Below, piece by piece: positions 1,228 to 21,312 of a stretch of 32,000 nucleotides of DNA. This stretch comes from Rhodobacter capsulatus SB 1003 (GTDB taxonomy: Bacteria > Pseudomonadota > Alphaproteobacteria > Rhodobacterales > Rhodobacteraceae), in assembly GCF_000021865.1 (NCBI RefSeq), contig NC_014034.1:2910001-2942000 (forward strand), in the 5' to 3' direction. Both the position numbers and the translations under genes were made by a program. A model generated the notes under the pieces. That model did no database searches. It was not told the origin of the DNA and saw nothing but the letters and a program-made list of their open reading frames with translations. Position 1 is the first letter of the stretch. Each line of letters starts with the position of its first letter.

Positions 1228-1611
1228 TCATCCAAGTTGCTCCTGCTGTTCGAGCCATTCCATGGGGAACGGCTTCAGCGCCCGTTCCAGCGACACATCC
1301 CGCCCCTGCGTCCCGCAAACTATCGCTTCCACGATGTCGGGCGAGAGCAGTGTCAGGCGCAGGATGCGGGTCATGTAGGACTGTGCGATGCCCTCGCGCT
1401 TGGCCAGTTCGGCGATGGTGGCGTACTCGCCCGACTCCAGCAGGCGCTTCCAGCGGAACGCCCGCGCCAGCGCCTTGACCAGTGTATTGTCCGTCCGGCG
1501 TGGCGGCGATGCACCGTTCGGCAGTTGCATTTCTTTCCGCCCGCCGCGCTTCACGACGCGGAACGGTACGTGGAGCGTCACCGTCTCGGGGATCGGAGCC
1601 GCGCGGGTCAT
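1228..1611 (-). CDS. small HTH-type accessory protein of the serine recombinase operon (127 aa)
   Basis: The internal ATG of track ORF 1228..1767 gives MTRAAPIPETVTLHVPFRVVKRGGRKEM...EYATIAELAKREGIAQSYMTRILRLTLLSPDIVEAIVCG. The segment ATIAELAKREGIAQSYMTRILRL reads as an HTH. Its ATG overlaps the recombinase stop (ATGA at 1608-1611). Confidence 0.7.
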   Translation of the reverse strand: MTRAAPIPETVTLHVPFRVVKRGGRKEMQLPNGASPPRRTDNTLVKALARAFRWKRLLESGEYATIAELAKREGIAQSYMTRILRLTLLSPDIVEAIVCGTQGRDVSLERALKPFPMEWLEQQEQLG

Positions 1612-2933
1612 GCGGCTTCCCCAATGCCCCCGGCCAGCATCTCGCGAGCCAGACCTCCGAGCCCATCGACGCGCAGTCGGACATTCAGACCATCTATGCC
1701 GATTTCGACGCGCTCGACCAGCAGCGCTACGATGCGAGCCTGTTCGGCGGGGAAGAGTTCGTCCCACAGCGGGTCGAACTTTTGCAGGGCCTCGCGGGCG
1801 TCGGTCTCTGTGATATCGGCAGCCTGCGTTCGCGCGGCTTTCCAGGTGCCCGCGACGATCTCGGGTTGGTGGAACGCGGCGCGGAGCCGGTTGATCACGG
1901 CCGCTTCGACCTCGCCTGCGGGCACGCGGCCGACCGGGCAGGATCCTGCGCCATGCTTCAGCACCGTCTGGCTGACATAGTAGCGATAGAGTCGCCCACC
2001 CTTGCGGGTGTGCGTCGGTGAGAACGCGGCGCCATCGGGACCGAAGAGAAGCCCCTTCAGCAGCGCGGGTGTGTCAGCCCGGGTCCGCGCGGCACGCTTG
2101 CGCGGGCTCTCCTGCAGGATGGCGTGAACCTTGTCCCAAGTCTCGCAATCGATGATCGGGTCGTGCTCGCCCGGGTAGCTGTCGCCTTTGTGGACCGCCT
2201 CGCCGATGTACGCGCGGTTGGACAGCATCCGATAGAGGTACTTCTTGTCGATCCTGTTGCCGCGTGGCGTGCAGAGGCCCCGCGCGCCTACCTCGCGTGC
2301 CAGCAGCGTGCAGGAGCCGATTTCGATGAACCGAGAGAAGATCCAGCGCACATGCGCGGCGTTGTCCTCGTCGACCAGCAGCTTCCGGTTTGCCACCAGG
2401 TAGCCGAAGGGCGGCACCCCGCCCATCCACATCCCCTTCTTCCGGCTGGCGGCGACCTTGTCGCGGATGCGTTCGGCGGTCACCTCCCGCTCGAACTGGG
2501 CGAAGCTGAGCAGGATGTTCAGCGTCAGCCGCCCCATGGAGGTCGTCGTGTTGAAGGATTGCGTCACCGAGACGAAGGTCACGCCGTTCCGGTCGAACAC
2601 CTCGACCAGCTTGGCGAAGTCGGCGAGCGAGCGGCTAAGGCGATCGATCTTGTAGACCACCACCACGTCGACCAACCCGTCCTCGATATCTGCCATCAAC
2701 CGCTTCAGGCCGGGGCGCTCAAGAGTGCCGCCGGAGATGCCACCGTCATCATACTGGTCGCGGACGAGCACCCAGCCCTCGGAGCGCTGGCTGGCGATGT
2801 AGGCCTCGCAGGCCTCGCGTTGCGCGTGGAGGCTGTTGAATTCCTGCTCCAACCCTTCCTCGGAGGATTTCCGGGTGTACACTGCACAGCGTAGCTTGCG
2901 GACGAGCTTCGTTTTTTCGGGCGGCTTCGTCAT
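1608..2933 (-). CDS. large serine recombinase (resolvase/invertase N-terminal domain plus recombinase domain), 441 aa
   Basis: Track ORF 1608..3089, trimmed to MTKPPEKTKLVRKLRCAVYTRKSSEEGLEQEFNSLHAQREACEAYI (serine-recombinase catalytic region YTRKSS). Further matches are DVVVVYKIDRLSRSLADF, TTSMGRLTLNILLSFAQFEREVTAERIRDK and the large C-terminal extension typical of phage/ICE serine integrases. The ATG at 2933 overlaps the upstream gene's stop (ATGA). Confidence 0.9.
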   Translation of the reverse strand: MTKPPEKTKLVRKLRCAVYTRKSSEEGLEQEFNSLHAQREACEAYIASQRSEGWVLVRDQYDDGGISGGTLERPGLKRLMADIEDGLVDVVVVYKIDRLSRSLADFAKLVEVFDRNGVTFVSVTQSFNTTTSMGRLTLNILLSFAQFEREVTAERIRDKVAASRKKGMWMGGVPPFGYLVANRKLLVDEDNAAHVRWIFSRFIEIGSCTLLAREVGARGLCTPRGNRIDKKYLYRMLSNRAYIGEAVHKGDSYPGEHDPIIDCETWDKVHAILQESPRKRAARTRADTPALLKGLLFGPDGAAFSPTHTRKGGRLYRYYVSQTVLKHGAGSCPVGRVPAGEVEAAVINRLRAAFHQPEIVAGTWKAARTQAADITETDAREALQKFDPLWDELFPAEQARIVALLVERVEIGIDGLNVRLRVDGLGGLAREMLAGGIGEAA

Positions 2934-3385
2934 GACCGCCCCCTGTGGTTCTTGAGGCCGAAGAACACCCAGCCGTTCCAGCGGGTGCCAGTGATGCCGC
3001 GCGCGATGGCAGACAGCGACTTGTAGGGCCGCCCCTGCCACTCGAAGCCATCGGCGGTGACGGTGACGACATACCCGACGCCCTGCCATTCGCGCAGGAG
3101 GCGTGTGCCTGTGATGGGGCGGTCGCGGTCGAGGCGCATTCCGCGCTTCTTCTTGTCGCCGCCGTCCAGTTCTTCGCCCAGTCTTTCCAGCCGCCGGACG
3201 GTCTCGGGCTTCAGCCCGCCATAGGCGAGTTCCTGGATCCGGTAGGCCAGGCGGGATTCAAGGTAGCGCCGGTTGAACGGCGGCGGTTCGCTGTCGAACA
3301 ACTCGCGCCACTGCTTTTTCAGGTCGGGCGTCGGTGTGGTCTTCAGCGCGGCCAAGCGCGCGGGGATGGGGTCGTGTGTCGTCAT
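2930..3385 (-). CDS. DUF2924-like protein commonly encoded upstream of large serine recombinases
   Basis: Track ORF 2930..3421, trimmed to MTTHDPIPARLAALKTTPTPDLKKQWRELFDSEPPPFNRRYLESRLAYRIQELAYGGL...REWQGVGYVVTVTADGFEWQGRPYKSLSAIARGITGTRWNGWVFFGL. This matches my recollection of the DUF2924 signature; the family name is unverified. Confidence 0.8.
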   Translation of the reverse strand: MTTHDPIPARLAALKTTPTPDLKKQWRELFDSEPPPFNRRYLESRLAYRIQELAYGGLKPETVRRLERLGEELDGGDKKKRGMRLDRDRPITGTRLLREWQGVGYVVTVTADGFEWQGRPYKSLSAIARGITGTRWNGWVFFGLKNHRGRS

Positions 3386-3399
3386 GCGGTCTCCGTTGG

Positions 3400-3597
3400 C
3401 TACTGGGTTGCATGACGGCATCGGTCGGCCGGATAGTGTAGGTGAATTTCTCTAGTATCGTCAGTAGGTTCGTCCTGAGGTTCGTCCTGTTGGCGTTGCA
3501 TCAAGCGCACCAGCCCGAGGGCGAGCAGCCCGCACAATTCGGCGCGGCGCTCGGCGGGCGTCATCTGGTCGGGTGACAGTGGATTGGGGCGTTTCAT
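3400..3597 (-). CDS. small hypothetical protein (65 aa), first gene of the recombinase operon
   Basis: Track ORF; same strand and 14 nt upstream of the DUF2924-like gene. Contains an in-frame perfect 12-bp tandem duplication (AGGTTCGTCCTG x2, 3466-3489) encoding QDEPQDEP. Confidence 0.5.
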   Translation of the reverse strand: MKRPNPLSPDQMTPAERRAELCGLLALGLVRLMQRQQDEPQDEPTDDTREIHLHYPADRCRHATQ

Positions 3598-6002: not shown

Positions 6003-6596
6003 ATGCTTCCGCCGATTTCCCCCTCCGACCTTGCCACACTGATCGACGAAGCGGCCTTTGCCGCGCGCCGCCTGCATCGCAAGCTGGTGCTGCCCGCCGC
6101 CGATCTCGACGATCTCTGCCAAGACCTGCTGGTCGACCTGATCTGTCGGTTGCCGGGTTTCGACGCTCGCCGTGGCAGCATCGGCGCCTTCGCCAACATC
6201 GTCCTGCGCAACCAGTCCTCGCGGATCGCGATCCGCCATCACCGCCAGCGCCGCGCACAGGGTGGCACGGTTCTGTCGCTGGATGCGCCCGTTTCCGGCG
6301 GCACCGAGTCGCTGGGTTGCATGCTGGCAGAGGCGGACAGTCTGGCCGCCTGGCATGGTCAGGACCGCTCCGCCGTGGAAGATGCCGAGACCCGTCACGA
6401 TCTCGCCCGGGCGCTGGGCGACCTGCCGGAGGATGCCCGCGGGCTTTGCGCGGCACTTGGCACCTGCGCTGTCGCGGAGATTGTCGAGCGTACCGGCACC
6501 TCCCGCTCCGCCCTCTACCGCCACATCGCCCGCCTGCGGCTTGACCTCGCCATGCGCGGGTTCGGGGCGGAGTGGGACGCCTCGTATGCGGCGTGA
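6003..6596 (+). CDS. ECF-like sigma-70 family RNA polymerase sigma factor, 197 aa
   Basis: Region-2-like DLDDLCQDLLVDLICRLPGFDARRGSIGAFANIVLRNQSSRIAIRHHRQRR and region-4-like LGDLPEDARGLCAALGTCAVAEIVERTGTSRSALYRHIARLRLDL (HTH). Confidence 0.75.
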   Translation: MLPPISPSDLATLIDEAAFAARRLHRKLVLPAADLDDLCQDLLVDLICRLPGFDARRGSIGAFANIVLRNQSSRIAIRHHRQRRAQGGTVLSLDAPVSGGTESLGCMLAEADSLAAWHGQDRSAVEDAETRHDLARALGDLPEDARGLCAALGTCAVAEIVERTGTSRSALYRHIARLRLDLAMRGFGAEWDASYAA

Positions 6597-6609
6597 GTAG
6601 AGGACCGAC

Positions 6610-7976: not shown

Positions 7977-8834
7977 ATGGCCTTCCGCATCATCACCGCC
8001 GACGAACGCCTCTCGGCCGCCGAAAACAAGACCTCGCTCGCCATCTTCGGCCCACCGGGCGTGGGCAAGACCACGCTTCTGAAAACCCTGCCCGCCGAGG
8101 AAACCGTCTGCCTCGACCTCGAGGCCGGGATGAAATCGGTGCAGGACTGGCGCGGTGCGTCGATCCCGGTGCGCAGTTTCACCGATTTCCGCGACCTTGC
8201 GGTGCTGATCGGCGGGCCGGACCCGGCGCAGCATCCGCAGTCCTGGTACGGGACCGAACGGCATGCGTGGCTGCAGGCCCAGCACCGCGACAGCGGCATC
8301 GAAGCCTTCCTTGCCTCGCGCCGCATCGTCTTCGTCGACTCGATCACCGATCTGACGCGGCAGGCGATGGCCTATGCCCGCCAGCAGCCCGAGGCCTTCT
8401 CGGACCGGACCGGCAAGCCGGATGTCCGAGGCGCCTATGGTCTTCTGGGGCGTGAGGTCATTCAGGCGCTGAAGCACCTCCAGCACGCGCGCGGCAAGAC
8501 CGTGATCTTCGTCGGCGTGCTGGAAAAGGTGACCGACGACTTCGGTACCGTCACCTGGCAACCGCAGATGGAAGGCAGCAAGGCCGGGCGGGAGTTGCCG
8601 GGCATCGTGGACCAGGTGGTGTCGATGCACCTCTTCGCCCGCGATGCCGAGGGTGGTTGGGTTCTGGACGAGACCGCCACCGACCGCCGCCTCGTCTGCA
8701 AGTCCGGCAACCCCTGGCGCCTTCCCGCCAAGGACCGTTCCGGCCGTCTCGACCTGACCGAACCGCCCGACCTTGGCGCGCTGCTCGCCCGGATCGACGG
8801 CCGCGCTCCCCATCAACCCGCTTTCGCCTCCTGA
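7977..8834 (+). CDS. phage AAA_24 / Sak4-like RecA-fold ATPase, 285 aa
   Basis: Walker A LAIFGPPGVGKTTLL near the N-terminus, Walker B-like RRIVFVDSITDL, and a size and position typical of Sak4-type ssDNA-annealing ATPases. GGAG lies 7 nt upstream of the ATG. Confidence 0.8.
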   Translation: MAFRIITADERLSAAENKTSLAIFGPPGVGKTTLLKTLPAEETVCLDLEAGMKSVQDWRGASIPVRSFTDFRDLAVLIGGPDPAQHPQSWYGTERHAWLQAQHRDSGIEAFLASRRIVFVDSITDLTRQAMAYARQQPEAFSDRTGKPDVRGAYGLLGREVIQALKHLQHARGKTVIFVGVLEKVTDDFGTVTWQPQMEGSKAGRELPGIVDQVVSMHLFARDAEGGWVLDETATDRRLVCKSGNPWRLPAKDRSGRLDLTEPPDLGALLARIDGRAPHQPAFAS

Positions 8835-8855: not shown

Positions 8856-9641
8856 ATGAGCTACGATCTGAACGACGCCCAGCCGCAGATGGCCCCCATC
8901 GGCGAACTGATCCCGGACGGCACCTTCGCAAAGGTGCGCCTGACCATCCGCCCCGGCGGCGTGAACGGCGCGACCCCGGCGGATGCGGGGCTTCTGAAGG
9001 CCTCGCAATCGAGCGATGCCCGGATGCTCGACTGCGAATTCACCGTGGTCGACGGCCCGCATGCCCGCCGCAAGTTCTGGCAGAGCTTCACCGTGGCGGG
9101 CGGCAAACTGGACGAGAAGGGCCAGTCCATCGGCTGGAAGATCTCGAAATCCACCTTTCGCGCCATCGCCGACAGCGCCCTTGGCCTTGATCCAAGGGAC
9201 GAAAGCCCCGCCGCCAAGGCCAAGCGGATTCTGCCCGGCCTGCGGCATCTCGAGGGCATCGTCTTTGCCGCCCGCATCATGGTGGAGCCCGCCTCCAACC
9301 CGCAGTACCGCGACCAGAACCGCATCGCCAACGTCGTTCTGCCCGACGAGCCGCACCATGCCGCCATCATGCGCGGCGAGACCGTGCCTCCGGAGCCCGT
9401 CAATGCTCCGCCGCGCAAGGCCGCGAGCGCCGCGGCGCCGGGCTGGCAGGCCCCGGCACCGGCCTGGGGCTCGGCACAACCGTCACCCGCGGCACCGAAC
9501 TGGGGCGCGGCACCGCAGCCTTCGGCGGCACCGGCGCCCGCCTGGGGGACGCAAAACGCCCCGGCCGCTCCGCCCGCGCCACAGGCCCCCGCGCCCGCCG
9601 CGCCGGGCACCCCCGCCATGCCCGCCTGGCTCAATGGCTGA
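8856..9641 (+). CDS. DUF669-like (putative phage ssDNA-binding) protein with Pro/Ala/Trp-rich C-terminal extension, 261 aa
   Basis: The position immediately after the AAA_24 ATPase and the N-terminus (MSYDLNDAQPQMAPIGELIPDGTFAKVRLTI...) fit recalled DUF669 proteins. The C-terminal ~80 aa are low complexity with repeated (A/N)WG units (GWQAPAPAWG, AAPNWG, APAPAWG, MPAWLNG). Confidence 0.6.
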   Translation: MSYDLNDAQPQMAPIGELIPDGTFAKVRLTIRPGGVNGATPADAGLLKASQSSDARMLDCEFTVVDGPHARRKFWQSFTVAGGKLDEKGQSIGWKISKSTFRAIADSALGLDPRDESPAAKAKRILPGLRHLEGIVFAARIMVEPASNPQYRDQNRIANVVLPDEPHHAAIMRGETVPPEPVNAPPRKAASAAAPGWQAPAPAWGSAQPSPAAPNWGAAPQPSAAPAPAWGTQNAPAAPPAPQAPAPAAPGTPAMPAWLNG

Positions 9642-9723: not shown

Positions 9724-9954
9724 ATGACCCCGGACGAATGGCAGGCGCATGTAACGCGCGCCGCTGCCCTGGAGATCGGAAAATGGCTCGAGGCACGAGG
9801 AAGACTGCACCAACCCATCGCAAGCCTTACCCTCGGCGACCTCGAGGCCATGGCGGTGAACGCCATCTCGCGCTGGATCGTGATGCAGTCGGAACGGCTT
9901 CACCGACAGGACTGGCCGCAGGACGACCCGATCGTGACGCTCTTGCTCGGGTAG
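9724..9954 (+). CDS. hypothetical protein, 76 aa
   Basis: Distal part of track ORF 9016..9954, starting at ATG 9724 (MTPDEWQAHVTRAAALEIGKWLEARG...). GC3 counted by hand is high in this frame, unlike the overlapping frame of track ORF 9738..10322. Confidence 0.6.
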   Translation: MTPDEWQAHVTRAAALEIGKWLEARGRLHQPIASLTLGDLEAMAVNAISRWIVMQSERLHRQDWPQDDPIVTLLLG

Positions 9955-9956
9955 CG

Positions 9957-10322
9957 CTTTGCGCTGTCTGCGCCCGGGAGGCCCGCGGCTTCGGCTACGT
10001 CCACCGTCTCCAGCACGACCGCTATCCCTATCACCGCTTCTGCTCGCTCCGCTGTCAGGACGTGGGCAGCACAATCGCTCAAAGGAACAATGGCATGATC
10101 GACAAGACTGCCCGCGAGGCACAGGCCATTCGCGATGCCCGGGTGCTGTTTGCCGAAGCGCTGACCGACCTTGGCCTGATGGCGCCTTTCTTCAACCGCT
10201 CCGCCGCCGATATCGACCGGCTGATCGAGGCGGCCGTCACCGGCTACGTCGACAGCATGCTGGCGCAAGGCGCGCACAAGGAGCGGACCGGCACGGCCCA
10301 TGACGACCCGATTCCGTTCTGA
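9957..10322 (+). CDS. small Zn-finger-like protein ending in an SSB-C-terminal-like DDPIPF tail; start codon unresolved
   Basis: Distal part of track ORF 9738..10322. High-GC3 coding begins right after the stop of the preceding gene: (A)LCAVCAREARGFGYVHRLQHDRYPYHRFCSLRCQD...AHDDPIPF. There is no ATG, GTG or TTG in frame between 9955 and GTG 10059; the first ATG is at 10095. Confidence 0.5.
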   Translation, partial: LCAVCAREARGFGYVHRLQHDRYPYHRFCSLRCQDVGSTIAQRNNGMIDKTAREAQAIRDARVLFAEALTDLGLMAPFFNRSAADIDRLIEAAVTGYVDSMLAQGAHKERTGTAHDDPIPF

Positions 10323-10332
10323 GGGGGCCGTC

Positions 10333-10542
10333 ATGATCGATCTAAACAATGAGGACGCCCCCTGGGCCGACCTTCTCGTCGCCGCGACGGCGAATGCCAT
10401 CACCGACTTCGAGGTCGAGTTCTGCGACAGCCTGCGCCAAAGGCTAGAGAGGTTCGGAGCGCGCGCCCGGCTGACGGAAGCCCAGCATCACAAGCTGACC
10501 TGCATCGCGCAGGCCGGCGGGTTCTGGGAGCGCGACCAATGA
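10333..10542 (+). CDS. hypothetical protein, 69 aa
   Basis: Track ORF 10300..10542, trimmed to ATG 10333 (MIDLNNEDAPWADLL...), which is preceded by GAGGGGG. Confidence 0.6.
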   Translation: MIDLNNEDAPWADLLVAATANAITDFEVEFCDSLRQRLERFGARARLTEAQHHKLTCIAQAGGFWERDQ

Positions 10543-11339: not shown

Positions 11340-12651
11340 TTTTGTCCCCTCGGCGGCGCAGGCCGCCGCCATCGCCGAAGTCCGCGACTGGTTCGAAAAC
11401 CGCACCGAGGATCAGCAGGTGTTCCGGCTCTTCGGCTATGCCGGGTCGGGCAAGAGCACGGTCCTGAAATTCGCTCTCGACGACCTCGGACTGTCACCCC
11501 ACCGCAGCGCAAGGGACGGCAGATGCGTGCCGGGCGTCGTCACCGCGACCTTCACGGGCAAGGCCGCACTGGTCCTGAGCCGAAAGGGCACGCCCGCCCG
11601 CACCATCCACAGCCTGATCTATTCGGTGATCGAGGCGACCGAGGAGGAAATCGCCGCCGCTGCCGCCAAGGTTCAGGAGGCCGAAACCGCCGCGCGCAAG
11701 CTGACCGGTTTCGACAGGACCGCGGCCGAGGCGGGGATCGAGGCGATGCGCCAGGCGCTGTCCGCGATGAAACACCCCCGCTTCGCCCTGAACCCGCAGA
11801 GTGATGCCGCGGATGCGCGGCTGATCGTGCTGGACGAGGTGTCGATGGTGGGCGAGGAGATGGCCCGCGACCTGATGAGTTTCGGCAAGCCGATCCTCGT
11901 CCTTGGCGACCCCGGACAGTTGCCACCGATCAAGGGCGAAGGGGCCTTCACCCGTGACGCGCCCGACGTGATGCTGACGGAGATTCACCGTCAGGCGGCC
12001 GAAAGCGCGATCATCCGTCTGGCCACCATGGCGCGGATGGGAGATCCCATCGGCTTCGGGATCTACGACGCCCATGTCGCCAAGCTGCGCAAGGGCGACA
12101 TCACGCCGGATCAGGCGCTGCGCGGCGGGCAACTGATCTGCGGGCTGAATGCGACGCGCTTCCAGCTGAACAACGCGATGCGCGCGGCGGCAGGACTGGG
12201 CGGGACGTATCTGCCGACCGGCGGGGCGGAAAAGATCATCTGTTTGAAGAACGACAACTCGCTCGGTCTGATCAACGGCATGTTCCTGACCCTCGAGGAT
12301 ATCGTCGATGAGAGTAGCCTCTACTTCTCGGCCGTGGTGCATGACGAAGACGGGCGACGCGTGACGCCATTCGACAGCGACGGCCGTCCGGGCCGGTTGC
12401 GCATCTACAAGGGGCATTTCGAGGATCACGTCGCCTACGATGCCAAGCGCCATGACCGCGACTGGCGGGAAAAGCGCAAGCTGACCGAGGCGACCTTCGG
12501 CTGGGCGATCACCGCCCACAAGGCGCAAGGGTCGCAGTGGGAGAACGTGATCGTCTGGGACGACGGGCTGGGTCGCAGCGAGATGGACCGCCGCCGCTGG
12601 CTCTACACCGCCATCACCCGCGCCGAGCGCGGGCTGGTCCTCCTTGCGTGA
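11332..12651 (+). CDS. RecD/Dda-like superfamily 1 DNA helicase, 439 aa
   Basis: Track ORF 11152..12651, trimmed to GTG 11332 (VSDFVPSAAQAAAIAEVRDWF...). Walker A GYAGSGKST, Walker B LIVLDEVSMVG, then ILVLGDPGQLPPI, LTEIHRQ, AITAHKAQGSQWENVIV and LYTAITRAERGLVLL. Confidence 0.85.
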   Translation: MSDFVPSAAQAAAIAEVRDWFENRTEDQQVFRLFGYAGSGKSTVLKFALDDLGLSPHRSARDGRCVPGVVTATFTGKAALVLSRKGTPARTIHSLIYSVIEATEEEIAAAAAKVQEAETAARKLTGFDRTAAEAGIEAMRQALSAMKHPRFALNPQSDAADARLIVLDEVSMVGEEMARDLMSFGKPILVLGDPGQLPPIKGEGAFTRDAPDVMLTEIHRQAAESAIIRLATMARMGDPIGFGIYDAHVAKLRKGDITPDQALRGGQLICGLNATRFQLNNAMRAAAGLGGTYLPTGGAEKIICLKNDNSLGLINGMFLTLEDIVDESSLYFSAVVHDEDGRRVTPFDSDGRPGRLRIYKGHFEDHVAYDAKRHDRDWREKRKLTEATFGWAITAHKAQGSQWENVIVWDDGLGRSEMDRRRWLYTAITRAERGLVLLA

Positions 12652-12660: not shown

Positions 12661-15216
12661 ATGATCGATCTCAACGATATCGCAAGGCCGAAGGCACGCC
12701 ACGATCTGGCTGCCGTGAAGGATCGGCTGGCGGCGACCGCAGGCGACTGGCTTCCCGGCATATTCCCGGAGGCGCGGCTTGCGCGCGACCGTCGCAGCCT
12801 GAGATGCGCTGACCTTTCCGGCCGGCCGCCGCGCAAGGAGGGGTCGTGCACCATCCACCTCGATGGGCCCTATGCCGGCTGGGGTTTCGACTATGCCACC
12901 GGTGAAAGCGCCGGGCCCATCGATCTGATCGCGCAGGCGACGGGGCTGAGCGACGGCGCGCTTTTCGACGAAGCGGCGCGGATTGCAGGTATGGATCGCC
13001 CCTCGCCCCAATCCGCGCCGCGCCCGAAGCCCGATCATTCAACTGAGGTTATGCGCCTGGTCGATGGCGCCCAGCCGCTCGCCGGAACCGTAGGTGAGGC
13101 ATACTTGCAAGCACGGGGCCTCTGCGATCCGGGATGCCCGGATCTGCTCTTTCACCCCGACCTGCCAGATTTCGACACGCGGCGTGGATGGCCGGGGCTG
13201 ATCGCGTTGCCTCGACTGGCGGACGGCACCCGCGCGCCAGGCATCCACAGGACCTTCCTTTTGGACGATGGCAGCGCCAAGGGCCCGGCTGGCAAGAAGA
13301 TGTTGGGTTCGGTGGCCGATGCGGCCGTGCGCCTGTTCGCAATGCCTGCGGATGGCCATCTTGGCATTGCCGAAGGGATCGAGACTGCCCTGGCGGCGCA
13401 TGCCCTGTTCGGCACCGCCGTCTGGGCGGCGCTGTCCGCGGATGGCCTCGCGCGCTTTCGCTGGCCCGAGGGCACGGCGCGGGTCACGATCTACGCCGAT
13501 GCTGGCGATGCCGGTCGGCAGGCGGCCGCCACGCTCTCGGACCGGCTGAACCGAGCCGACATTCCGAACGAGATCGTGGTCCCGCTGCATGGCGACGACT
13601 TCAACGACGATCTCATGCGTGGCGCACGCGCCGAGGACTATGGCCCGCGCCAGGAGCTTCCGTCCGAAGACCTGCCTGCAGAGACAGAGCATTTGCCGTC
13701 TGCGGGCGACATGATCGCTAACCTGGTGGCGGCCGCCGATGCGCTGACCAACCCGCCCGATATCTCTGCCCTTGGCGAGCTTCTGGGCCGCATTGCCCTC
13801 GCACGGCTGGACCCGTTGCCCGCGCGCCAGATCCTCGCCCGCATCAAAACCACGACCGGCATCGCCATGTCGATCCTCGACAAGCAGCTGGTCGAACTGG
13901 TGAAGCGCGTGAACGCCTCGGGCGATCCCCATGCGCGGATCGCCAAACCTGCCTGGTTCAACCGCATGCGACAGGATCTGGCGGGAACGCCCGAGCGCAA
14001 CGAGGCCAATGTCATCATCGCACTGACGTCCGACATCGCCTTCGCGGGCGTGCTGGCCTTCGACGAATTCTCCCAGGAGATCGTCGTGCGCCAACCGCTG
14101 CCATGGGATGCCGCGACAGGCCCGTTTCCCCGCCCGTGGGAGGACGCCGACGATGTCCGGACCGCGGAATGGCTGCAGCTGCGCGGGGTCAATGTCGCGC
14201 CGCTCGTGGTCGGCCGTGCCGTTGGCGCCGTCGCCCGCGAACACCGCATTCACCCCGTCCGCGACTGGCTGGAACATCTTCGCTGGGACGGCATCCCCCG
14301 GATCGAGACCTGGACCAGCAGCTACCTCGGCGCCGCACCGACCGCGTTCCATCATACCGTCGGCGCGCTCTGGCTAATCTCGGCCGTGGCGCGCATCTTC
14401 CGCCCCGGCGTGAAGGCCGATCACATGCTGATCCTCGAAGGCCCGCAGGGCGCGCGCAAATCGACAGCCATCAAGGTGCTGGCGGGTGAAGCCTGGTTCA
14501 CTGACGAACTCCCCGAGCTTGGGTCCAAGGATGCCGCCATCCACATGCAGGGCGTCTGGATCGTGGAAATCGCCGAACTCGACGCCATTGGCCGCGCCGA
14601 GGTCTCTCGCATCAAGGCCTTCCTGACCCGCACCACCGACCGCTTCCGCCCGCCGTACGGCCGCTACACAGTCGAGGTGCCGCGCCAATGCGTATTCGCG
14701 GGCACCGTGAACCCCGACACCTATCTGCGCGACGAAACCGGCAACCGCCGCTTCTGGCCGCTCCGCTGCGGGACCATCGACATCGCGGCGCTGGCCCGCG
14801 ACCGGGACCAGCTCTGGGCCGAAGCCGTCCATCGCTTCCGCGAAGGTGCGATCTGGTGGATCGACGATCCGGCGTTGCTGGCCGAAGCTGCTACCGCGCA
14901 GGAAGCGCGCTATCAGGCGGATGCCTGGGACGCCCGTATCGACCGGTGGCTGACGCACGACACCCGCAGCGTCAATCGCGGCCATGCGGGCTATGAGGAC
15001 TGGCAGAACGAAGAGGTTGAGCGTCCAGAGCCTATCCGTGATGTGTCGGTGGGCGAGATCCTTGAAAGTGCGCTCGGCATCGAGCCCGCGAAATGGACGA
15101 AGGGCGATCAGATGCGTGTGGGAGCATGGCTGAAATCGAGGAACTGGGAGCGGTACCGCAGTGGCGCGGGCGCGACCCGCGAATGGCGCTACCGCAGGCC
15201 GCAGGGCGGCGGCTGA
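12661..15216 (+). CDS. bifunctional primase-helicase: N-terminal Zn-binding/Toprim primase fused to VirE/D5-type P-loop NTPase, 851 aa
   Basis: Toprim-like LGIAEGIETALAAHALFGTAVWAALSADGL...VTIYADAGDAGRQAA. VirE-family core ...MLILEGPQGARKSTAIKVLAG...VWIVEIAELDAI...IKAFLTRTTDRFRPPYGRY...FAGTVNP. GAGGGGG lies upstream of the ATG. Confidence 0.85.
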   Translation: MIDLNDIARPKARHDLAAVKDRLAATAGDWLPGIFPEARLARDRRSLRCADLSGRPPRKEGSCTIHLDGPYAGWGFDYATGESAGPIDLIAQATGLSDGALFDEAARIAGMDRPSPQSAPRPKPDHSTEVMRLVDGAQPLAGTVGEAYLQARGLCDPGCPDLLFHPDLPDFDTRRGWPGLIALPRLADGTRAPGIHRTFLLDDGSAKGPAGKKMLGSVADAAVRLFAMPADGHLGIAEGIETALAAHALFGTAVWAALSADGLARFRWPEGTARVTIYADAGDAGRQAAATLSDRLNRADIPNEIVVPLHGDDFNDDLMRGARAEDYGPRQELPSEDLPAETEHLPSAGDMIANLVAAADALTNPPDISALGELLGRIALARLDPLPARQILARIKTTTGIAMSILDKQLVELVKRVNASGDPHARIAKPAWFNRMRQDLAGTPERNEANVIIALTSDIAFAGVLAFDEFSQEIVVRQPLPWDAATGPFPRPWEDADDVRTAEWLQLRGVNVAPLVVGRAVGAVAREHRIHPVRDWLEHLRWDGIPRIETWTSSYLGAAPTAFHHTVGALWLISAVARIFRPGVKADHMLILEGPQGARKSTAIKVLAGEAWFTDELPELGSKDAAIHMQGVWIVEIAELDAIGRAEVSRIKAFLTRTTDRFRPPYGRYTVEVPRQCVFAGTVNPDTYLRDETGNRRFWPLRCGTIDIAALARDRDQLWAEAVHRFREGAIWWIDDPALLAEAATAQEARYQADAWDARIDRWLTHDTRSVNRGHAGYEDWQNEEVERPEPIRDVSVGEILESALGIEPAKWTKGDQMRVGAWLKSRNWERYRSGAGATREWRYRRPQGGG

Positions 15217-15245
15217 AGGTAGCTGCAACATGTCCAGCATCGAGA

Positions 15246-15269
15246 GGGCACCCGTTCGGGTGCCCTTTT
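15246..15269 (+). terminator. rho-independent terminator after the primase-helicase gene
   Basis: GGGCACCC-GTTC-GGGTGCCC perfect 8-bp stem followed by TTTT, 30 nt after the stop. Confidence 0.7.
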
Positions 15270-15279
15270 GCGTCTTGGC

Positions 15280-15552
15280 CTTGTCCCACTTCGGGCCTTG
15301 TCCCACTTCAAGCCCAAGGTGGGACAGAAAAAGCCTTTCAAGATCAATGCTGTCCCACCTGTCCCACTTGGACCGCCAACTTCTCCCTTTCCTATACGGA
15401 GCGCATGATTTCCGGTCGACGTCATTCTTCTTTATGCGACGTAGGGAAAAAGGTGGGACAAGTGGGACAGGTGGGACAAGCATTGTTCTGAAAGGAAAAT
15501 TTGACGTCCCACTTGAGCGGTGAATGGGACAGCCCAAAGCGAGGTGGGACAT
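15280..15552. repeat. iteron array (candidate origin of replication): 9 perfect and 2 degenerate copies of GTGGGACA/TGTCCCAC
   Basis: TGTCCCAC at 15282, 15299, 15351 and 15360. GTGGGACA at 15319, 15453, 15462, 15471 and 15544. Variants at 15505 (CGTCCCAC) and 15524 (ATGGGACA). The extended consensus is CTTGTCCCACTT. Spacing is 9 bp in the doublet and the triplet. A relatively AT-rich spacer lies at ~15395-15450. The array fills the 434-bp gap between the primase-helicase and RuvC genes. Confidence 0.7.
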
Positions 15553-15650
15553 GGATGCGGTCGGGAGCATTTTCCTTGATCGAGTGCCTGCAACGTGATT
15601 CCCTGCTCATGACCAAAGCCGAAGGCCCACGATCCAGGTGAGCCTTCATC

Positions 15651-16172
15651 ATGACCCCGAACTCCGAAGTGCCGGACCAGCGCCTTGAACAGGGGCGCCT
15701 TGCTGTACTCTGCATCCTCGCCCTCGATCTCGGCACATCGACCGGATGGGCGATCCGCAGTCATGACGCCCTGATCACCAGCGGCACCGTCTCGCTGCGT
15801 CCCGGCCGCTTCGACGGCGGTGGCATGCGCTACCTGCGCCTCACCAACTGGCTGACCGAGATCGACCGACTGTCCGGACCAATCGCGGCTATCTGGTTCG
15901 AGGAAGTCCGTCGCCATGTCGGTACGGACGCTGCCCATGTGTATGGCGGTCTGATGGCCACCCTCACGGCATGGGCCGAACTGCGCGGCATTCCTTATCA
16001 GGGCGTTCCGGTCGGCACGATCAAGCGCCATGCCACCGGGAAGGGAAATGCCGACAAGGATGCAATGGTCGCCGCTGCGCGGGCCCGAGGCTTCAGTCCG
16101 GCCGATGACAACGAAGCCGATGCCATCGCTATCCTGCACTGGGCGATCGAGACGAACGGGGGTGTCGCATGA
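15651..16172 (+). CDS. RuvC-like Holliday junction resolvase, 173 aa
   Basis: ILALDLGTSTGWA (catalytic Asp), AIWFEEV (Glu), KRHATGKGNADKDAMV and DDNEADAIAILHWA (Asp) match the RuvC-fold phage resolvase pattern. Confidence 0.8.
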   Translation: MTPNSEVPDQRLEQGRLAVLCILALDLGTSTGWAIRSHDALITSGTVSLRPGRFDGGGMRYLRLTNWLTEIDRLSGPIAAIWFEEVRRHVGTDAAHVYGGLMATLTAWAELRGIPYQGVPVGTIKRHATGKGNADKDAMVAAARARGFSPADDNEADAIAILHWAIETNGGVA

Positions 16173-16369
16173 GGTGGCATCCGAGGGGCTACGGCGGCCA
16201 ACGCCGGGATCCCGAGCAGGTCAAGCGGGATGGATGGCAGGAGCAGGGACTGCTGGCGATTTCGGCGGATGATCCGCGCCTGACGTGGCCCGAGCGAGAA
16301 CTGGTGCGTGAACTGGGCGAAAAGCTTTATGAGCCGCGCATGGCCGAACGTGAGGTCGCAAATGGCTGA
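16169..16369 (+). CDS. hypothetical protein, 66 aa
   Basis: Track ORF; ATGA overlap with the RuvC-like gene stop. Confidence 0.5.
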   Translation: MRWHPRGYGGQRRDPEQVKRDGWQEQGLLAISADDPRLTWPERELVRELGEKLYEPRMAEREVANG

Positions 16370-16377
16370 CTGAACGC

Positions 16378-16785
16378 TTGCCATGGTCGAGGACCGGCTC
16401 GAGCGTGCCGCCGACGTGTTCCGGTCGCTCCCCCGAGGTGAAGCCGCAGGGTTACTTCAACGCGTGGCCTGAGTACTTCCACACCTTCGCCGATCAAGTC
16501 GGCCAGGAGCCTCGGATGCGACGGCCGAAGCCAGGCCCGCGTGACATCACGCAGGCCGAGGATACTCTCCTCTGGCTGCGCTGGCTGGACCCCGCCGACG
16601 TCCGCCTCTTGTGGCTTCGCGCGAACCGCAAGCCTTGGAAGCCGATCTGCTGGGAGTTGGGCATCAGCCGCGCCACGGCCAACCGGCGCTGGCAGTACGG
16701 CATCGCGGTCATCGTCTGGCGATTGAATGGGAAACGGGTGCCATCTAGGCGATCTATCGACTATATCGTGCGAGTAGCTGGCTGA
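16378..16785 (+). CDS. HTH protein (recalled as DUF6362-like); N-terminus apparently frame-disturbed at a C5 run
   Basis: Track ORF starting at TTG 16378. The C-terminal part LLWLRWLDPADVRLLWLRANRKPWKPICWELGISRATANRRWQYGIAVIVWRLNG is HTH-like. ATG 16383 in another frame encodes MVEDRLERAADVFRSLP and would join ...EVKPQGYFNAWPEY if the C run at 16430-16434 were one base shorter. Confidence 0.6.
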   Translation: MPWSRTGSSVPPTCSGRSPEVKPQGYFNAWPEYFHTFADQVGQEPRMRRPKPGPRDITQAEDTLLWLRWLDPADVRLLWLRANRKPWKPICWELGISRATANRRWQYGIAVIVWRLNGKRVPSRRSIDYIVRVAG

Positions 16786-16801
16786 GCACGGGAAGATAGA
16801 T

Positions 16802-17992
16802 TTGTTCGCGTTCGTTGACGAAACTGGGAATACTGGCTCGAACATCTTCGACGAAGCGCAGCCAGATTTTTTCACGGGAGCGCTCATTACCAAGTCAAAC
16901 TTCGATGTTCTGCACAAGAAATCGCTGAGCGCCCTCTGCAGGAAACACGGCATCGCGTCCCTGCATGCCTCGGTCCTTGGCTTCGGACCGATCGAGAAGA
17001 TCGCGCCCGATCTCCTCAACATCCTCAAGAGGGTCGACGCGAGGTTTTTCGTATCGCGTGTCGAGAAGCGCTATCTGGTCGCCACCAAGCTCTACGACAC
17101 CTTTTTTGATTCCGGCGAGAACCCGGCGGCGAACTGGAATGCCTACAACGTGAGGGTTCTGAAGCTGACCCTGTGCTTCAAGGTTGCGACGATCCTGACC
17201 GAAGAGATTGCCCGCGAGTTCTGGTCAATGCTGATGGCCCGCAACGAGAAACAGGCGCGCGCGAAGATCCCGGCCATTTGCGACGCCATCCTTGAGAACG
17301 TGCACCTGCTTGCCGACCAGAGGTCGAGGGATGTCGTCACAGAAACCCTGTTGTGGTCGCGCGGCCACCCGGAAGCCCTCGACATCTTCATCGCGGGGCG
17401 CCAAGCCAAGAACGGGCACATGCCGAACATGGTAGCATTCGCCAACCTGCTCGACGGCTTGGAAGGGTTCTCGAAACGGTGGAACCGCCCTCTAAAGAAG
17501 ATCATCCATGATAGGCAGTCGCAATTCGAGAGTTCGCTTGAAGAGTGGCACCGCTTGTTTTCAAACGCCTCCTGCGAGCCAATCCACCGACCCGGTGAGA
17601 CAATCGTTCTACGCAAGGTCCCAGGTTCGACCTTCGAGGTCTCGAGCTCCGACGATAGCGCGGGGATACAGATCGCAGATCTGACGCTCTGGCTGTTTCG
17701 GCAGTTCCTCGCCGGGAAGGAACTCCCCGAGGGTTCGGCTGCTCTCCTCAGCTACGTGTTCAAGAAGGGCTACCAGCAAGACTTCTCGTTTCGTGGTGTC
17801 GGGGCCCAGGTGGAAGTGCAACTCCGCGAGATCATGGAAAAGGATATTCCTCCCGAGGCGATGGAAGCAGGTCGACGTCTGCGCGAAGAGCAGGAACAAC
17901 TCCGACAGCATCTCATCGCCAAATACGAAGAAGATGGTCTAATGCCGTATCAGCGCGGCCCGTTGAAGTTGGTGTCGCCCGAAGACGACTGA
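16802..17992 (+). CDS. DUF3800-family protein, 396 aa
   Basis: TTG start. N-terminal FAFVDETGNTG and later SAGIQIADLTLWLF match the recalled DUF3800 signature (DE...QxAD). GC is clearly lower than in flanking element genes. Confidence 0.7.
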   Translation: MFAFVDETGNTGSNIFDEAQPDFFTGALITKSNFDVLHKKSLSALCRKHGIASLHASVLGFGPIEKIAPDLLNILKRVDARFFVSRVEKRYLVATKLYDTFFDSGENPAANWNAYNVRVLKLTLCFKVATILTEEIAREFWSMLMARNEKQARAKIPAICDAILENVHLLADQRSRDVVTETLLWSRGHPEALDIFIAGRQAKNGHMPNMVAFANLLDGLEGFSKRWNRPLKKIIHDRQSQFESSLEEWHRLFSNASCEPIHRPGETIVLRKVPGSTFEVSSSDDSAGIQIADLTLWLFRQFLAGKELPEGSAALLSYVFKKGYQQDFSFRGVGAQVEVQLREIMEKDIPPEAMEAGRRLREEQEQLRQHLIAKYEEDGLMPYQRGPLKLVSPEDD

Positions 17993-18133
17993 GGCTCTTG
18001 TCAATCCCATTCCGGGTAGTGAGACGATTTCTTGCGAGACATCGCATGGTGAGACGGATCGCCCAAAAGCAGCTATCCATAGCGATATACTCGGAGTGGA
18101 GCGCGCAGGCAGAGGCCGCGCCGCTGGCTTCCC

Positions 18134-18387
18134 GGGTCCAGAGAAGGGTCCAGCCGGGGTCCAATCGGCTAACCCATTGAGTTCTTGGTTCCTTCCTAGC
18201 GATATTCGTATGCTGGCGGGCGAAGCGCGGGACATCGCCAGCGACAGGGCCGGATTTTTGGGAAGCCACCCGGAAGCCACTGCCGTCTGAACCCGCCTGA
18301 AACAACGCAAAATCAGACCCTTGAAGCTGGACACCCCTGGTGGCCGCTGGACCCCACTTGGAGTCCAGTCTGGACCCCGGAGTCCGG
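18134..18387. promoter_or_regulatory. array of 8 copies of G(G/A/T)GTCCAG upstream of the ParB-methyltransferase gene (candidate operator/late-promoter region)
   Basis: Forward copies at 18134, 18146, 18157 (11-12 bp spacing), 18361 and 18380. Reverse copies (CTGGAC(A/C)C) at 18327, 18347 and 18370. The copies at 18361-18377 form a palindrome, GAGTCCAG-t-CTGGACCC. All lie in a 436-bp gap with no credible ORF. Confidence 0.45.
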
Positions 18388-18428
18388 AAGCCAGGGGTAT
18401 CCATCCTGATCCGAGGAATGACCCGCCC

Positions 18429-19805
18429 ATGACGCTGAGCTTCGCCCCAGAGCGGATCGAGATGTGGCCGCTGGCCAAGCTCCAGCCCTACGCAAGGAAC
18501 GCGAAGGCCCATCGCGCGGACCAGGTCGCGAAGATCGCCGCCAGCATGGCGGAGTTTGGCTGGACGGTGCCCTGCCTCGTGGCAGAGGACGGTGAGTTGA
18601 TCGCGGGCCACGGCCGGGTGCTTGCAGCCACGCAGTTGGGGCTGACCGAAGCACCGGTAATCGTGCTTGGGCATCTGACCGAAGCGCAGCGCCGGGCTTA
18701 CCGGATCGCGGACAACAAGCTGACCGAACTCGGCACCTGGGACGAGGCACTGCTGTCAGCGGAGCTGAACGACCTCTTGGCCGAGGATTTTGACCTGTCG
18801 CTGGTCGGCTTTTCGGACGGCGAGTTGGACAAGCTGCTGGCCTATGTGCCGGAGGGGGACGGGGAAGAAGGTGCCGCTGGGGGCTCCGTGCCGCCGGTGA
18901 CCATTCCCGAACCGCCCCGCAATCCGGCGTCTCGCACTGGCGACCTGTGGATCCTCGGCGACCATCGGTTGCTCTGCGGCGACAGCACCAGCGCGGCCGA
19001 CGTGCGCCGCCTGATGAACGGCGAGCGGGCGATCCTGTTCGCGACCGACCCGCCCTATCTGGTGGACTACGACGGCTCGAACCACCCCACCCGCAACAAG
19101 GATTGGTCCGCGTCCTATGGCACGACCTGAGACGACAGTTCGCAGGGCGCGGAGCTCTACGACGGCTTCATCGCCGCCGCGGTCGCAGAAGCCATCACTG
19201 AGGATGCTGCCTGGTACTGCTGGCACGCCTCCCGCCGCCAGGCGATGCTGGAGGCCTGCTGGGAAAAGGCGGGGGCCTTCGTCCATCAGCAGATCATCTG
19301 GGTGAAGGACCGCGGGGTTCTGACCCGCTCGCACTACCTCTGGAAGCACGAGCCCTGCTTCATGGGCTGGCGCCGCCCGAACCGCCCGCCGAAGGTGGCC
19401 GAGCAGACGCTGCCCTCGACCTGGGAGATGCCGTCCTTTGCCAAGGACGAGCGGCCCGACCATCCGACGCCGAAACCCCTCGATGCCTTCGGGATCCCGA
19501 TGCGCCAGCATGTGGCGCGGGGCGGTCTCTGCTACGAGCCCTTCTCGGGCTCCGGTTCGCAGATCATGGCGGGCGAGGCCAACGGCCGCCGCGTCTTCGC
19601 AATGGAAATCAGCCCGGCCTATGTCGATGTCGCCGTGGAGCGCTGGCAGGCCGAGACTGGCAAGGAGACCATCCTCGACGGCGACGGCCGGACCTTCGCG
19701 CAGGTGAAAACCGAGCGGCTTGGTGACGGCACCGAACCCGCGACCGATACGCCGGACACGGACGCCGCCCCCGAACCCGCGCGAAAGCGCAAGACCCCCG
19801 CGTGA
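18429..19805 (+). pseudogene. ParB-like nuclease domain / N6- or N4-DNA methyltransferase fusion interrupted by one in-frame TGA (19128-19130)
   Basis: Track ORFs 18321..19130 and 19245..19805 are in the same frame, and the 114 nt between them are stop-free with good coding sense. The ParB domain reads MTLSFAPERIEMWPLAKLQPYARNAKAH...LIAGHGRVLAA. The MTase carries motif IV FATDPPYLV, then ...YGTT*DDSSQGAELYDGFIAAAVAEAITEDAAWYCWHASRRQAMLEACWEKAG..., and motif I YEPFSGSGSQIMA (beta-class order). Confidence 0.8.
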
Positions 19806-19806
19806 C

Positions 19807-20767
19807 ATGCATGACCTGGCTTTACCTTCCTCCGGACGCGCTTCCGGAGCCGGAGACGCATGCCTCTTCGGCCTCTCCCTCTGCTCCGGCGCGGGCGGGC
19901 TCGACCTCGGGCTCACCATCGCCATCCCCGGATATCGTGCTGTGGGCCATGTCGAACGGGAAACCTTCGCCGCAGCCACTCTCGTGGCGCGGATGGAAGA
20001 CGCGTCCCTGGATCGCGCGCCTGTCTGGGACGATGTTGCCACCTTCGACGGCCGCCCGTGGCGCGGCGCGGTGGACATCGTCACTGCGGGCTATCCGTGC
20101 CAGCCATTCTCGGTCGCGGGCAAGCGCCGGGGCGCGGACGATCCGCGCCATCTCTGGCCCCATGTCGCCCGCATCATCGGCGAGGTCGAGCCGCCCTTCG
20201 TGTTCCTCGAGAATGTCGCCCATCATCTCCGCCTCGGCTTCCTCGAGGTCGCCAGCGGACTGGTCGGCATGGGCTACCGCCTTGCGGCAGGCCTCTTCAC
20301 GGCGGCGGAAGTCGGCGCGCCCCACAAGCACGAGCGGTTGTTCATCCTTGCCATCCGCGAGGGGGACGAACTTGCCGACCCCGCGCGCCTGCTCTGGCAC
20401 CCGGTCGAATGGCGGGAACCGGACGGAACTGCTCCGGCTGTGGCCGACGCCCCGTGCCAGCGCCAACGAGAACCGGCAGACGAAGCCGACGCCCTCACAG
20501 GCAGCGGGCCAGCACGGCATGAACCTCGCGACGACGGCAGCCCTATGGCCGACGCCGCAGATCGACAGTTTCCGCAGCCGGGGTGGCGAGCGGAAGGACG
20601 AGAAGGGTCTGGACCGGATGGCCCGGGACTGGCCGACGCCGATGGCGAACGACGGCTGCAAGCCGAGCGCGGGAAACCGGCGGACGGCCGACCTGACCCA
20701 TGCGGCGGGGCTGTGGATGACGCCAGCGCGAGTGCGCGCATTGCGCGAGCTCCTTGATGCGGGATGA
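19807..20767 (+). pseudogene. phage-type DNA (cytosine-5)-methyltransferase split by a +1 frameshift
   Basis: The N-terminal two-thirds lie in the frame of track ORF 19720..20757, starting at ATG 19807: motif I LSLCSGAGGLDLG, motif IV AGYPCQPFSVAGKRRG, motif VI VFLENV, motif VIII GAPHKHERLFILA. The C-terminal third makes sense only in the frame of track ORF 19802..20767, with three WPTP repeats (LWPTPRASANENR, LWPTPQIDSFRSRGG, DWPTPMANDGCKPSAGN). The switch point lies somewhere in ~20345-20430. Confidence 0.75.
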
Positions 20768-20830
20768 GGCGTCGGAGCGGTGCAGCTCTGCCGTTCCCTT
20801 GGGGAGGGGGGTCACCCCCTCCTGTCGCTG

Positions 20831-21134
20831 TCATTCATCCTCAGCATCCATGGGAAGCGGACCGTGCATCGTAAAGCACGCCTTGAGTTGCCCCTCATGC
20901 GCCAGCAAGTCCGACAGACGCCATCGCACGGAACCCGGACCGGCCTGTCGCGCCCTTGGAAAGTTCCCCTCTCGTCTCCATCGGTGAATCGATGCCGGAC
21001 TTCACCTTATAGCGCGCTGCGACTTCTTCGATCGTCAGATACTGTTCATCGGCTCGTGCTGCGGGTTCCAAATCTTCTCTCCGGTAGTGCATTCGGCGGT
21101 CGGAGTGATTCACCTGAGAACGCGCCGATGTCAA
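20831..21134 (-). pseudogene. AlpA/excisionase-family HTH gene split by a frameshift near 20990-20996
   Basis: Track ORF 20895..21134 encodes ...YLTIEEVAARYKVKSG, then turns nonsensical. Shifting the frame after GGC gives SIHRWRREGNFPRARQAGPGSVRWRLSDLLAHEGQL..., ending at the TGA complement of 20831-20833. Together these recreate the AlpA-type HTH-wing pattern. The likely start is ATG 21092 or 21134. Confidence 0.7.
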
Positions 21135-21312
21135 TTTGCGCGCAGATGGCGCAGGCGCACCATGTTACCATCTGCCTATCGAGAGGTATCCGCACATGAC
21201 GCAAGAAGGCCTAGCGAGCGCGGAATGTAGCCCAGATGTAGCCCAGAACTGGGTGAGCACAGCAATGCAGCCTCAACGCTGAAAAATTTGCTTTGCTTTC
21301 GGGGGTTTGAAG

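Follow-up and report, generated by a model that had tools for sequence, protein, structure and literature searches.

Gene content of the region

The DNA analyzed here, referred to as the window, is a stretch of 32,000 nucleotides from the chromosome of Rhodobacter capsulatus SB 1003 (NC_014034.1, positions 2,910,001 to 2,942,000) with an overall GC content of 67%. Between a module built around a large serine recombinase and a tRNA-Phe gene, it holds a phage-like element that is very probably a defective prophage, i.e., the early half of an ordinary temperate Rhodobacterales phage whose late half was deleted, and not a phage satellite. The window is identical or nearly identical in several R. 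capsulatus assemblies, e.g., CP198954.1.

Genes were called by the frame bias of GC at third codon positions, and open reading frames (ORFs) were scanned with Pfam, PHROGs, and PADLOC (Table 1). An earlier note on this DNA, made from the letters without database searches, had described a serine recombinase module followed by a phage-type early set. The profile matches bear this out for the recombinase and its DUF2924 partner and for the Sak4-like ATPase, the Cas4-like nuclease, the RecD-like helicase, the primase-helicase, RuvC, and the sigma factor, and the two methyltransferases (ParB-N6 and C5) were recovered together with the TGA codon at 19128. The protein encoded at 8856-9641, which the note took to be like a single-stranded-DNA-binding protein, matched only phrog_2300, with nothing in Pfam or in the PDB, and that idea rests on position and architecture. 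A PDB sequence search with two early proteins of unknown function likewise gave no match. As the note had stated, no terminase, portal, capsid, tail, or lysis gene was matched in any ORF of the window.

The noncoding DNA behind the primase gene contains nine copies of the heptamer TGTCCCAC (reverse orientation, GTGGGACA) in 15282-15551, where 0.78 would be expected, and no shuffle reached nine. This agrees with the iteron origin proposed earlier, although the origin remains putative. Among 140 relatives, the heptamer follows the primase gene directly in 7 to 11 copies in 42 and in 0 to 2 copies in the rest, the pattern expected of an origin that covaries with its initiator.

Table 1. Features of the element and its surroundings (window coordinates unless a locus is named)
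Feature	Position	Strand	Remarks
C5 DNA methyltransferase (Dcm), N-terminal two thirds	1-904	-	First cargo gene; first 301 codons in window; GC 0.52
Ribbon-helix-helix protein (Arc/CopG-like), 59 amino acids	908-1087	-	phrog_3180, 2e-4; weak RHH_1 match; called in L003; just upstream of dcm
127-amino-acid protein downstream of integrase	1228-1611	-	Weak ParB/MarR-type helix-turn-helix matches
Large serine recombinase (integrase), 441 amino acids	1608-2933	-	Resolvase, Recombinase, and Zn_ribbon domains
DUF2924 protein, integrase partner	2930-3385	-	Family match; 4-nt overlap with integrase start
Two genes opening the rightward early operon, 412 and 309 amino acids	3758-5894	+	No family found; end-to-end alignment with relatives, up to 97% identity
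Sigma-70 family regulator	6003-6596	+	Region 2 and C-terminal helix-turn-helix; Sigma70_r2, 25.1 bits (cutoff, 24)
Three small conserved phage genes, 118, 130, and 172 amino acids	6610-7876	+	phrog_36009, phrog_2480
AAA_24 (Sak4-type) recombination ATPase	7977-8834	+	2.9e-43
phrog_2300 protein, unknown function	8856-9641	+	Globular N-terminal part, long Pro/Ala-rich tail
DUF6511 protein and small phrog_7521 protein	9738-10542	+	Family matches
Cas4-domain (PD-(D/E)xK) exonuclease	10539-11339	+	phrog_1990, 3.6e-63
RecD-like superfamily 1 helicase	11332-12651	+	Family match
Primase-helicase, 851 amino acids, intact	12661-15216	+	DUF7146, Toprim_3, and VapE domains; relatives 67-96% identical
Terminator-like hairpin	15245-15266		Precedes iteron cluster
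Iteron cluster, putative origin of replication	15282-15551	Both orientations	9 exact heptamer copies around a lower-GC spacer
RuvC-like Holliday junction resolvase	15651-16172	+	Family match
66-amino-acid phrog_19772 protein	Within 15651-16369	+	Directly after RuvC; family match
DUF6362 gene	16383-16785	+	Extra C at 16430 shifts its first ~16 codons in this assembly
DUF3800 protein, moron	16802-17992	+	98% identical to Paracoccus aminovorans relative L081 only; GC 58%
ParB-N6 adenine/N4 cytosine methyltransferase, pseudogene	18321-19805	+	One in-frame TGA at 19128-19130; relatives have TGG (Trp)
C5 cytosine methyltransferase, 3'-truncated	19732-20724	+	C-terminal-half motifs missing
Deletion junction	20718-20724		7-bp microhomology TGACGCC, common to the phage methylase gene and the chromosomal DNA beside alpA
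alpA-like pseudogene	20831-21092	-	1-nt frameshift near 20993; repaired protein matches HTH_17 (1.4e-10) and Phage_AlpA (23.7 bits)
tRNA-Phe(GAA)	21313-21388	-	Host gene
RNase P class A RNA (bacterial)	30514-30918	-	285 bits; ordinary host content
Conserved arm at tRNA-Ser	L001 18379-18621; L317 18501-18744; L266 20607-20840; L312 18912-19071		L001 copy lies 5.4-5.7 kb left of window position 1

The block is colinear with the early region of a Rhodobacterales prophage family

A search with the primase protein yielded loci at 67 to 96% identity, 80 of them in species-representative genomes and 80 in IMG/VR. In gene order, the block at 3743-20724 matches over 150 Rhodobacterales prophage loci, with protein identities of 70 to 98%, and a tblastn matrix recovered each gene from DUF2924 to the C5 methylase in the same order and within the same identity range, with the exception of the DUF3800 gene. 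All 17 early genes align end to end with their orthologues, except for the first 18 residues of the DUF6362 protein. The extra C at 16430 that displaces these residues, which the earlier note had read as a disrupting C-run, does exist in the window; however, it is a private feature of this assembly, and six others of the same lineage lack it.

In the relatives, the small (TerS) and GpA-type large (TerL) terminase subunit genes follow 1.3 to 2 kb after the C5 methyltransferase gene. On one contig that was followed further, they are succeeded by genes for a portal, a fused protease-major head protein, an HNH protein, a head decoration protein, a tail terminator, tail proteins, a chaperone, and a tape measure. 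Among the 74 relatives with a flank of 9 kb or more behind the primase gene, 43 have TerL within reach; in many of the others, insertions of 4 to 6 kb between primase and RuvC genes push it away. This site, between the primase gene with its iterons and ruvC (window 15216-15651), is one of two cargo hot spots that the family has in addition to the one between the integrase module and the attachment site, the other being the variable slot between the DUF6362 and ParB-methylase genes (window 16785-18321), which holds the DUF3800 gene here. The relatives in which these hot spots were noted are L012, L013, L035, L082, L122, and L154.

These relatives belong to a family of widespread, uncultivated temperate phages of the siphovirus type that infect Rhodobacterales, from which the element in the window descends. 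IMG/VR contigs of the family that also carry the integrase are typically 37 to 50 kb long (e.g., IMGVR_UViG_2834868767_000009), and members were also found in P. aminovorans HPD-2 and Alitabrizicola rongguiensis J26. When the element as a whole was compared by megablast with 50,697 phage records, no match was returned; identity of the primase to any phage record does not exceed 43%, and the best AAA_24 matches in the phage collection are distant, so that no cultured phage can serve as a reference. One relative could be assembled from three of our loci (L261, L231, and L340; IMGVR_UViG_2855056715_000001, 42,348 bp). Late genes occupy 22 kb or more downstream of its methylase genes, and it shares the late module and an integrase module 90% identical to that of the window, but it has no VapE primase, and its AAA_24 protein is only 47% identical. 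The differing replication module shows that the prophage family is modular and mosaic. No recognizable att core was found at the right end of this relative.

The GpA-type terminase and the siphovirus late module that characterize the family are deleted in the window copy, which is therefore a truncated derivative and not a complete family member. Two features expected of a defective prophage were found, namely, colinearity with complete temperate phage genomes and the loss or inactivation of functions for lytic growth. A relative in R. capsulatus SP18 (NZ_CP198946.1, L018 14574-15743) has the 5' part of the ParB-methylase gene directly abutting an internal part of the TerL gene (309 of 670 residues). 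This copy appears to be broken as well, with the methylases, TerS, and the N terminus of TerL deleted.

The right end is a microhomology junction inside a methyltransferase gene

Compared with two intact homologues, the frame of the C5 methyltransferase gene is unbroken to 20721, where homology stops; the frameshift that the earlier note had placed near 20400 does not exist. The truncated protein spans positions 4 to 167 of the 324 positions of PF00145 and aligns up to residue 303 of 391 in an intact homologue. At the DNA level, homology to eight phage relatives ends at window position 20724, and the remaining 590 bp before tRNA-Phe matched none of the 419 phage loci fetched. Starting at 20718 and reading to the right, the window matches R. 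capsulatus CP119563.1, first with 95% and further on with 93% identity. When the sequences were printed side by side, the window tracked the phage methylase gene up to ...GATGACGCC and CP119563.1 from TGACGCC on, the two parents sharing exactly TGACGCC. The overlap of the two homologies in this heptanucleotide is a signature of illegitimate, microhomology-mediated deletion. Since the junction is identical in seven independent assemblies, complete genomes included, it is not an assembly artifact. Both phage methylase genes at this end are dead, that of the C5 enzyme by truncation and that of the ParB-methyltransferase by a nonsense mutation. The latter product is 93% identical to an intact 490-residue protein in L215, which matches positions 26 to 447 of phrog_498.

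The alpA-like gene lies beyond the junction. Its orthologue in CP119563.1 is intact (P0001, 86 amino acids) and 91% identical to the repaired protein of the window. There, alpA stands beside tRNA-Phe and the same genes for a solute-binding protein and a resistance-nodulation-division (RND) pump, and is followed by small ORFs, an insertion sequence (IS), and a RES-Xre toxin-antitoxin pair, with no phage genes. Judged by this comparison, alpA is chromosomal or island DNA adjacent to tRNA-Phe and not phage DNA. The earlier note was right that an AlpA gene and a frameshift near 20993 are present, the gene being confirmed by the HTH_17 and Phage_AlpA matches, but not that it belongs to the element. 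The explanation that it had offered for the disrupted right part, decay after deletion of a late region or juxtaposition of two elements, finds support and can be made precise, with the junction at 20718-20724 and the alpA remnant in the neighboring DNA.

In CP119563.1, the DNA beside tRNA-Phe (L420 10262-15634; in the window, 20725-21312) is a degenerate island made up of alpA, small ORFs, an IS5-type transposase gene, and the RES-Xre pair, and no integrase gene was found within 10 kb of it. The degenerate island implies that tRNA-Phe once hosted another element, of which the frameshifted alpA is all that survives in the window. Two further ORFs in this part were rejected as genes: one of 279 amino acids at 19822-20661 (minus strand) that matches phrog_38519 and runs antisense to the C5 methylase gene, and one of 139 amino acids at 20780-21199 (plus strand) antisense to alpA.

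The left end lies at a tRNA-Ser gene outside the window

The integrase is apparently intact, an identical protein is present in many assemblies, and relatives are 86 to 92% identical. The gene for the 127-amino-acid protein follows the integrase gene in 78 of 80 listed loci at 55 to 79% identity, and the other two loci end just past the integrase gene; the trio of DUF2924, integrase, and 127-amino-acid genes is complete in the same number of loci. Contigs obtained by an exact-protein look-up of the integrase reach 8.4 kb further left than the window. They continue a low-GC (52%) cargo of the restriction-modification type that begins at window 1-1087 (L001 11847-18170) and reads leftward as the ribbon-helix-helix gene, dcm, and genes for HATPase_c_3, Z1 (a "type II helicase" in PADLOC), and DUF4420 proteins. 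Next come tRNA-Ser(GCU) and the host genes for LysE, a major facilitator superfamily (MFS) transporter, and asd. No virion genes were found in this flank, from the cargo through tRNA-Ser to the LysE, MFS, and asd genes, which excludes the structural genes left of the window that the earlier note had considered. The ribbon-helix-helix protein is probably the controller of the cargo. In the IMG/VR contig L269, a diverged version of the cargo occupies the same position, with a ribbon-helix-helix homologue 85% identical and identity falling to 38% along the cluster; other relatives carry different cargo.

The ~150 bp just inside tRNA-Ser are conserved in 16 other loci, 0.7 to 10 kb beyond the integrase gene and after variable cargo. 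This arm ends in ...GCAAG-TGGCGGAG, beyond which the sequences diverge; arm and core could be aligned in 13 loci. Reverse-complemented, the core TGGCGGAG gives CTCCGCCA, the final eight nucleotides of tRNA-Ser, and the arm abuts complete tRNA-Ser genes in three hosts, with anticodons GCU, GGA, and CGA. In L312, a late phage gene lies 446 nt past the core, oriented as it should be in attP, and this locus looks like an attP form. Another R. capsulatus lineage has a tyrosine-integrase island at the same tRNA-Ser(GCU), and its homology to the lineage of the window stops exactly at the 3' end of the tRNA. From these alignments, we infer that the integrase family, with its DUF2924 and 127-amino-acid companions, inserts at the 3' end of tRNA-Ser genes. 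Such 3' ends are an unusual class of target for serine integrases. We found no description of the region or of the target of this integrase family in the literature searched.

With this boundary, the remnant would extend from 5.6 kb left of the window to position 20724, a span of ~26.3 kb with 20.7 kb in the window, instead of the extent from 1228 to 21312 given in the earlier note. No right attachment site was found elsewhere in the element, whether as a copy of the 3' end of tRNA-Ser or tRNA-Phe or as a phage right arm. Use of tRNA-Phe as an attachment site was rejected, as a search for direct repeats of its end, or of any sequence from the right boundary, at the left boundary and across the element gave only chance matches of at most 17 nt. 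In the absence of a right attachment site, the integrase has no substrate, and the element is locked in and cannot excise.

Proposed history and state of the remnant

In the history that we propose, the large serine recombinase module inserted the ancestral phage at the 3' end of tRNA-Ser(GCU), 5.6 kb left of the window, with cargo of the restriction-modification type lying between the integrase gene and the left attachment site. One illegitimate recombination across TGACGCC would then have removed the 3' third of the C5-methylase gene together with the entire late region, more than 20 kb, which is expected to have included lysis genes besides the genes seen in the relatives. The same deletion would have taken the right attachment site and a stretch of the chromosome of unspecified length, joining the phage to DNA 114 bp beyond alpA next to tRNA-Phe. 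That all of this was lost in a single event is what we infer.

Lacking packaging and virion genes, the remnant has no means of spreading as a phage. No damage is apparent in the integrase trio, the early operon, the primase gene and origin, or the restriction-modification cargo. Judging from sequence, expression or function may persist for the 17 early genes, the iteron origin, and the cargo.

Several observations weigh against this account or limit its reach. The full length of all 17 early genes relative to intact relatives is also what purifying selection on a useful element predicts, so that the remnant may not be pure junk. No truly vacant tRNA-Ser site came to light, and neither did the native sequence that separates tRNA-Ser from tRNA-Phe, so the chromosomal share of the deletion could be of any size, and more than one event may lie behind it. 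The evidence against a relocated late region is indirect. Finally, the same-lineage assemblies are nearly identical and provide no population evidence of ongoing decay.

Alternative explanations

One of the readings offered in the earlier note was a phage satellite, P4-like, PICI-like (phage-inducible chromosomal island), or similar, natively without virion genes, replicating from its own primase and origin and packaged by a helper. An integrase, a primase-helicase, and an iteron origin without structural genes, with an AlpA-type gene nearby, are indeed what such an element would offer; however, an own primase/replicase and origin are also found in ordinary phages and thus do not discriminate. 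What decides is that relatives with the same gene order carry a full late region, making the absence of virion genes secondary: relatives 70 to 98% identical have late genes directly downstream, the very observation by which the note itself would have abandoned the satellite. In addition, the element ends on the right in a gene cut short and not in an attachment site, whereas a self-excisable satellite would have two att sites. The alpA gene is a pseudogene beyond the junction, in DNA shared with a strain without the prophage. The scan of all ORFs with Pfam, PHROGs, and PADLOC, whose sensitivity for novel genes is limited, detected no terS, cos, capsid-remodeling, or helper-interference genes. 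The satellite has next to no chance of being correct. An inversion or translocation that split the prophage and left its late half elsewhere in the chromosome would produce a similar picture, since a microhomology junction fits any illegitimate recombination. Yet R. capsulatus is not named among the best 120 TerL homologues listed (80 to 96% identity), and the DNA right of the junction keeps the order and orientation of the prophage-free strain, so we hold such a rearrangement to be very improbable.

Selection might also have kept the remnant, with the cargo serving as a defence or addiction module or with superinfection immunity or recombination functions being of use to the host or to the remnant itself. 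Such domestication would fit the intact state of the cargo, of the integrase trio, and of all 17 early genes, and likewise the type II methyltransferase and the Z1 "type II helicase" protein in the cargo and the confinement of all inactivating lesions to the methylase genes at the truncated end. A recent deletion, however, predicts intact ORFs equally well, divergence within the lineage is too small to measure selection, and the remnant was found in only one R. capsulatus lineage, its absence from two others being seen next to tRNA-Phe or next to tRNA-Ser. Domestication is therefore unlikely in our view, and we retain the defective prophage that lost its late half by deletion.

Flanking host genes and differences between assemblies

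To the right of tRNA-Phe, the window contains host genes for the solute-binding protein, two membrane-fusion proteins, an AcrB-type pump, and ribosomal protein L33, as well as RNase P RNA. The leader region ahead of the gene for the solute-binding protein contains, at 21840-21960, a short array of degenerate repeats of the CCATCC(G) type. Synteny at the L33 gene breaks directly outside the species, and no empty site was found in other species by this route.

The same-lineage assemblies are nearly identical to one another. Six of them agree with one another at 15525, 15566, 16430, and 24071, and at each of these positions the window assembly deviates by a single base, probably through sequencing error or private mutation. 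Two 1-nt insertions private to CP198954.1, at 9544 and 9610, cause ORFs to fuse.

Comparison with known systems

The remnant resembles Rac, e14, DLP12, and CP4-57 of Escherichia coli K-12, which are likewise integrated, have kept early, integration, and recombination genes while losing particle genes, and contain pseudogenes and morons. Several cryptic prophages of E. coli K-12 keep both attachment sites and can excise. In contrast, the right attachment site is gone here, the integrase is a large serine recombinase and not a tyrosine integrase, and what was lost is one clean block with a mapped 7-bp microhomology junction. The literature on defective prophages includes Casjens 2003 and Bobay et al. 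2014 (cited in PMC5026251).

With the uncultivated Rhodobacterales family, the window copy shares the colinear early region, the heptamer (in a subset of the family), and the same arm next to tRNA-Ser; unlike the window copy, the family continues into TerS, GpA-type TerL, portal, fused protease-capsid, and tail genes. The cos-type siphoviruses of R. capsulatus cluster RcC (RcBaka, RcOceanus, and others) have a TerL 62% identical to that of the intact relatives, i.e., they resemble genes that the window has lost. Cluster RcC has a fused capsid-protease and cos ends (PMC8601537), and the fused capsid-protease is also found in the intact relatives. Its early and replication modules, by contrast, are unrelated to those of the window at the level tested (no megablast match, and a primase no closer than the 43% given above).

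P4-like satellites and PICIs share with the window an integrase, a primase-type replicase, an origin, and the lack of virion genes, but here there is no right attachment site, no hijacking or packaging gene is found, and alpA lies outside the element. The best matches to the AAA_24 ATPase in the phage collection come from Wolbachia phage WO and Acidithiobacillus phage AcaML1 (45 to 47% identity). This likeness is distant and limited to single modules, and the hosts and late genes differ. In WO-derived DNA, a recombinase gene also lies directly downstream of a DUF2924 gene (PMC10299305).

Implications

An integrase, a primase, and an origin without capsid genes are insufficient to call a satellite; the relatives and a junction resolved to the base are what decide. 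For R. capsulatus, the analysis settles how a region of 26 kb in the B10/SB1003-type chromosome is to be annotated, including its boundaries, three pseudogenes, and an alpA gene that comes from different DNA.

It is conceivable, although highly unlikely, that on derepression the remnant fires its origin in place and thereby amplifies the surrounding chromosome, with the cargo and the neighboring RND efflux genes in it. If this were true, the region would be overrepresented in particles of the R. capsulatus gene transfer agent (RcGTA), and the remnant would be a locked-in replicon acting as a dosage or gene transfer booster or as a defence island. The targeting of tRNA-Ser by the integrase is the less striking of these two ideas but the more likely one. 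This apparent targeting by DUF2924-associated serine integrases and the size of the uncultivated family are only mildly novel by-products. Nevertheless, a serine integrase module that apparently uses tRNA-Ser 3' ends could interest those who mine integrases for genome engineering, and the loci assembled here document a very widespread, uncultivated family of Rhodobacterales prophages.

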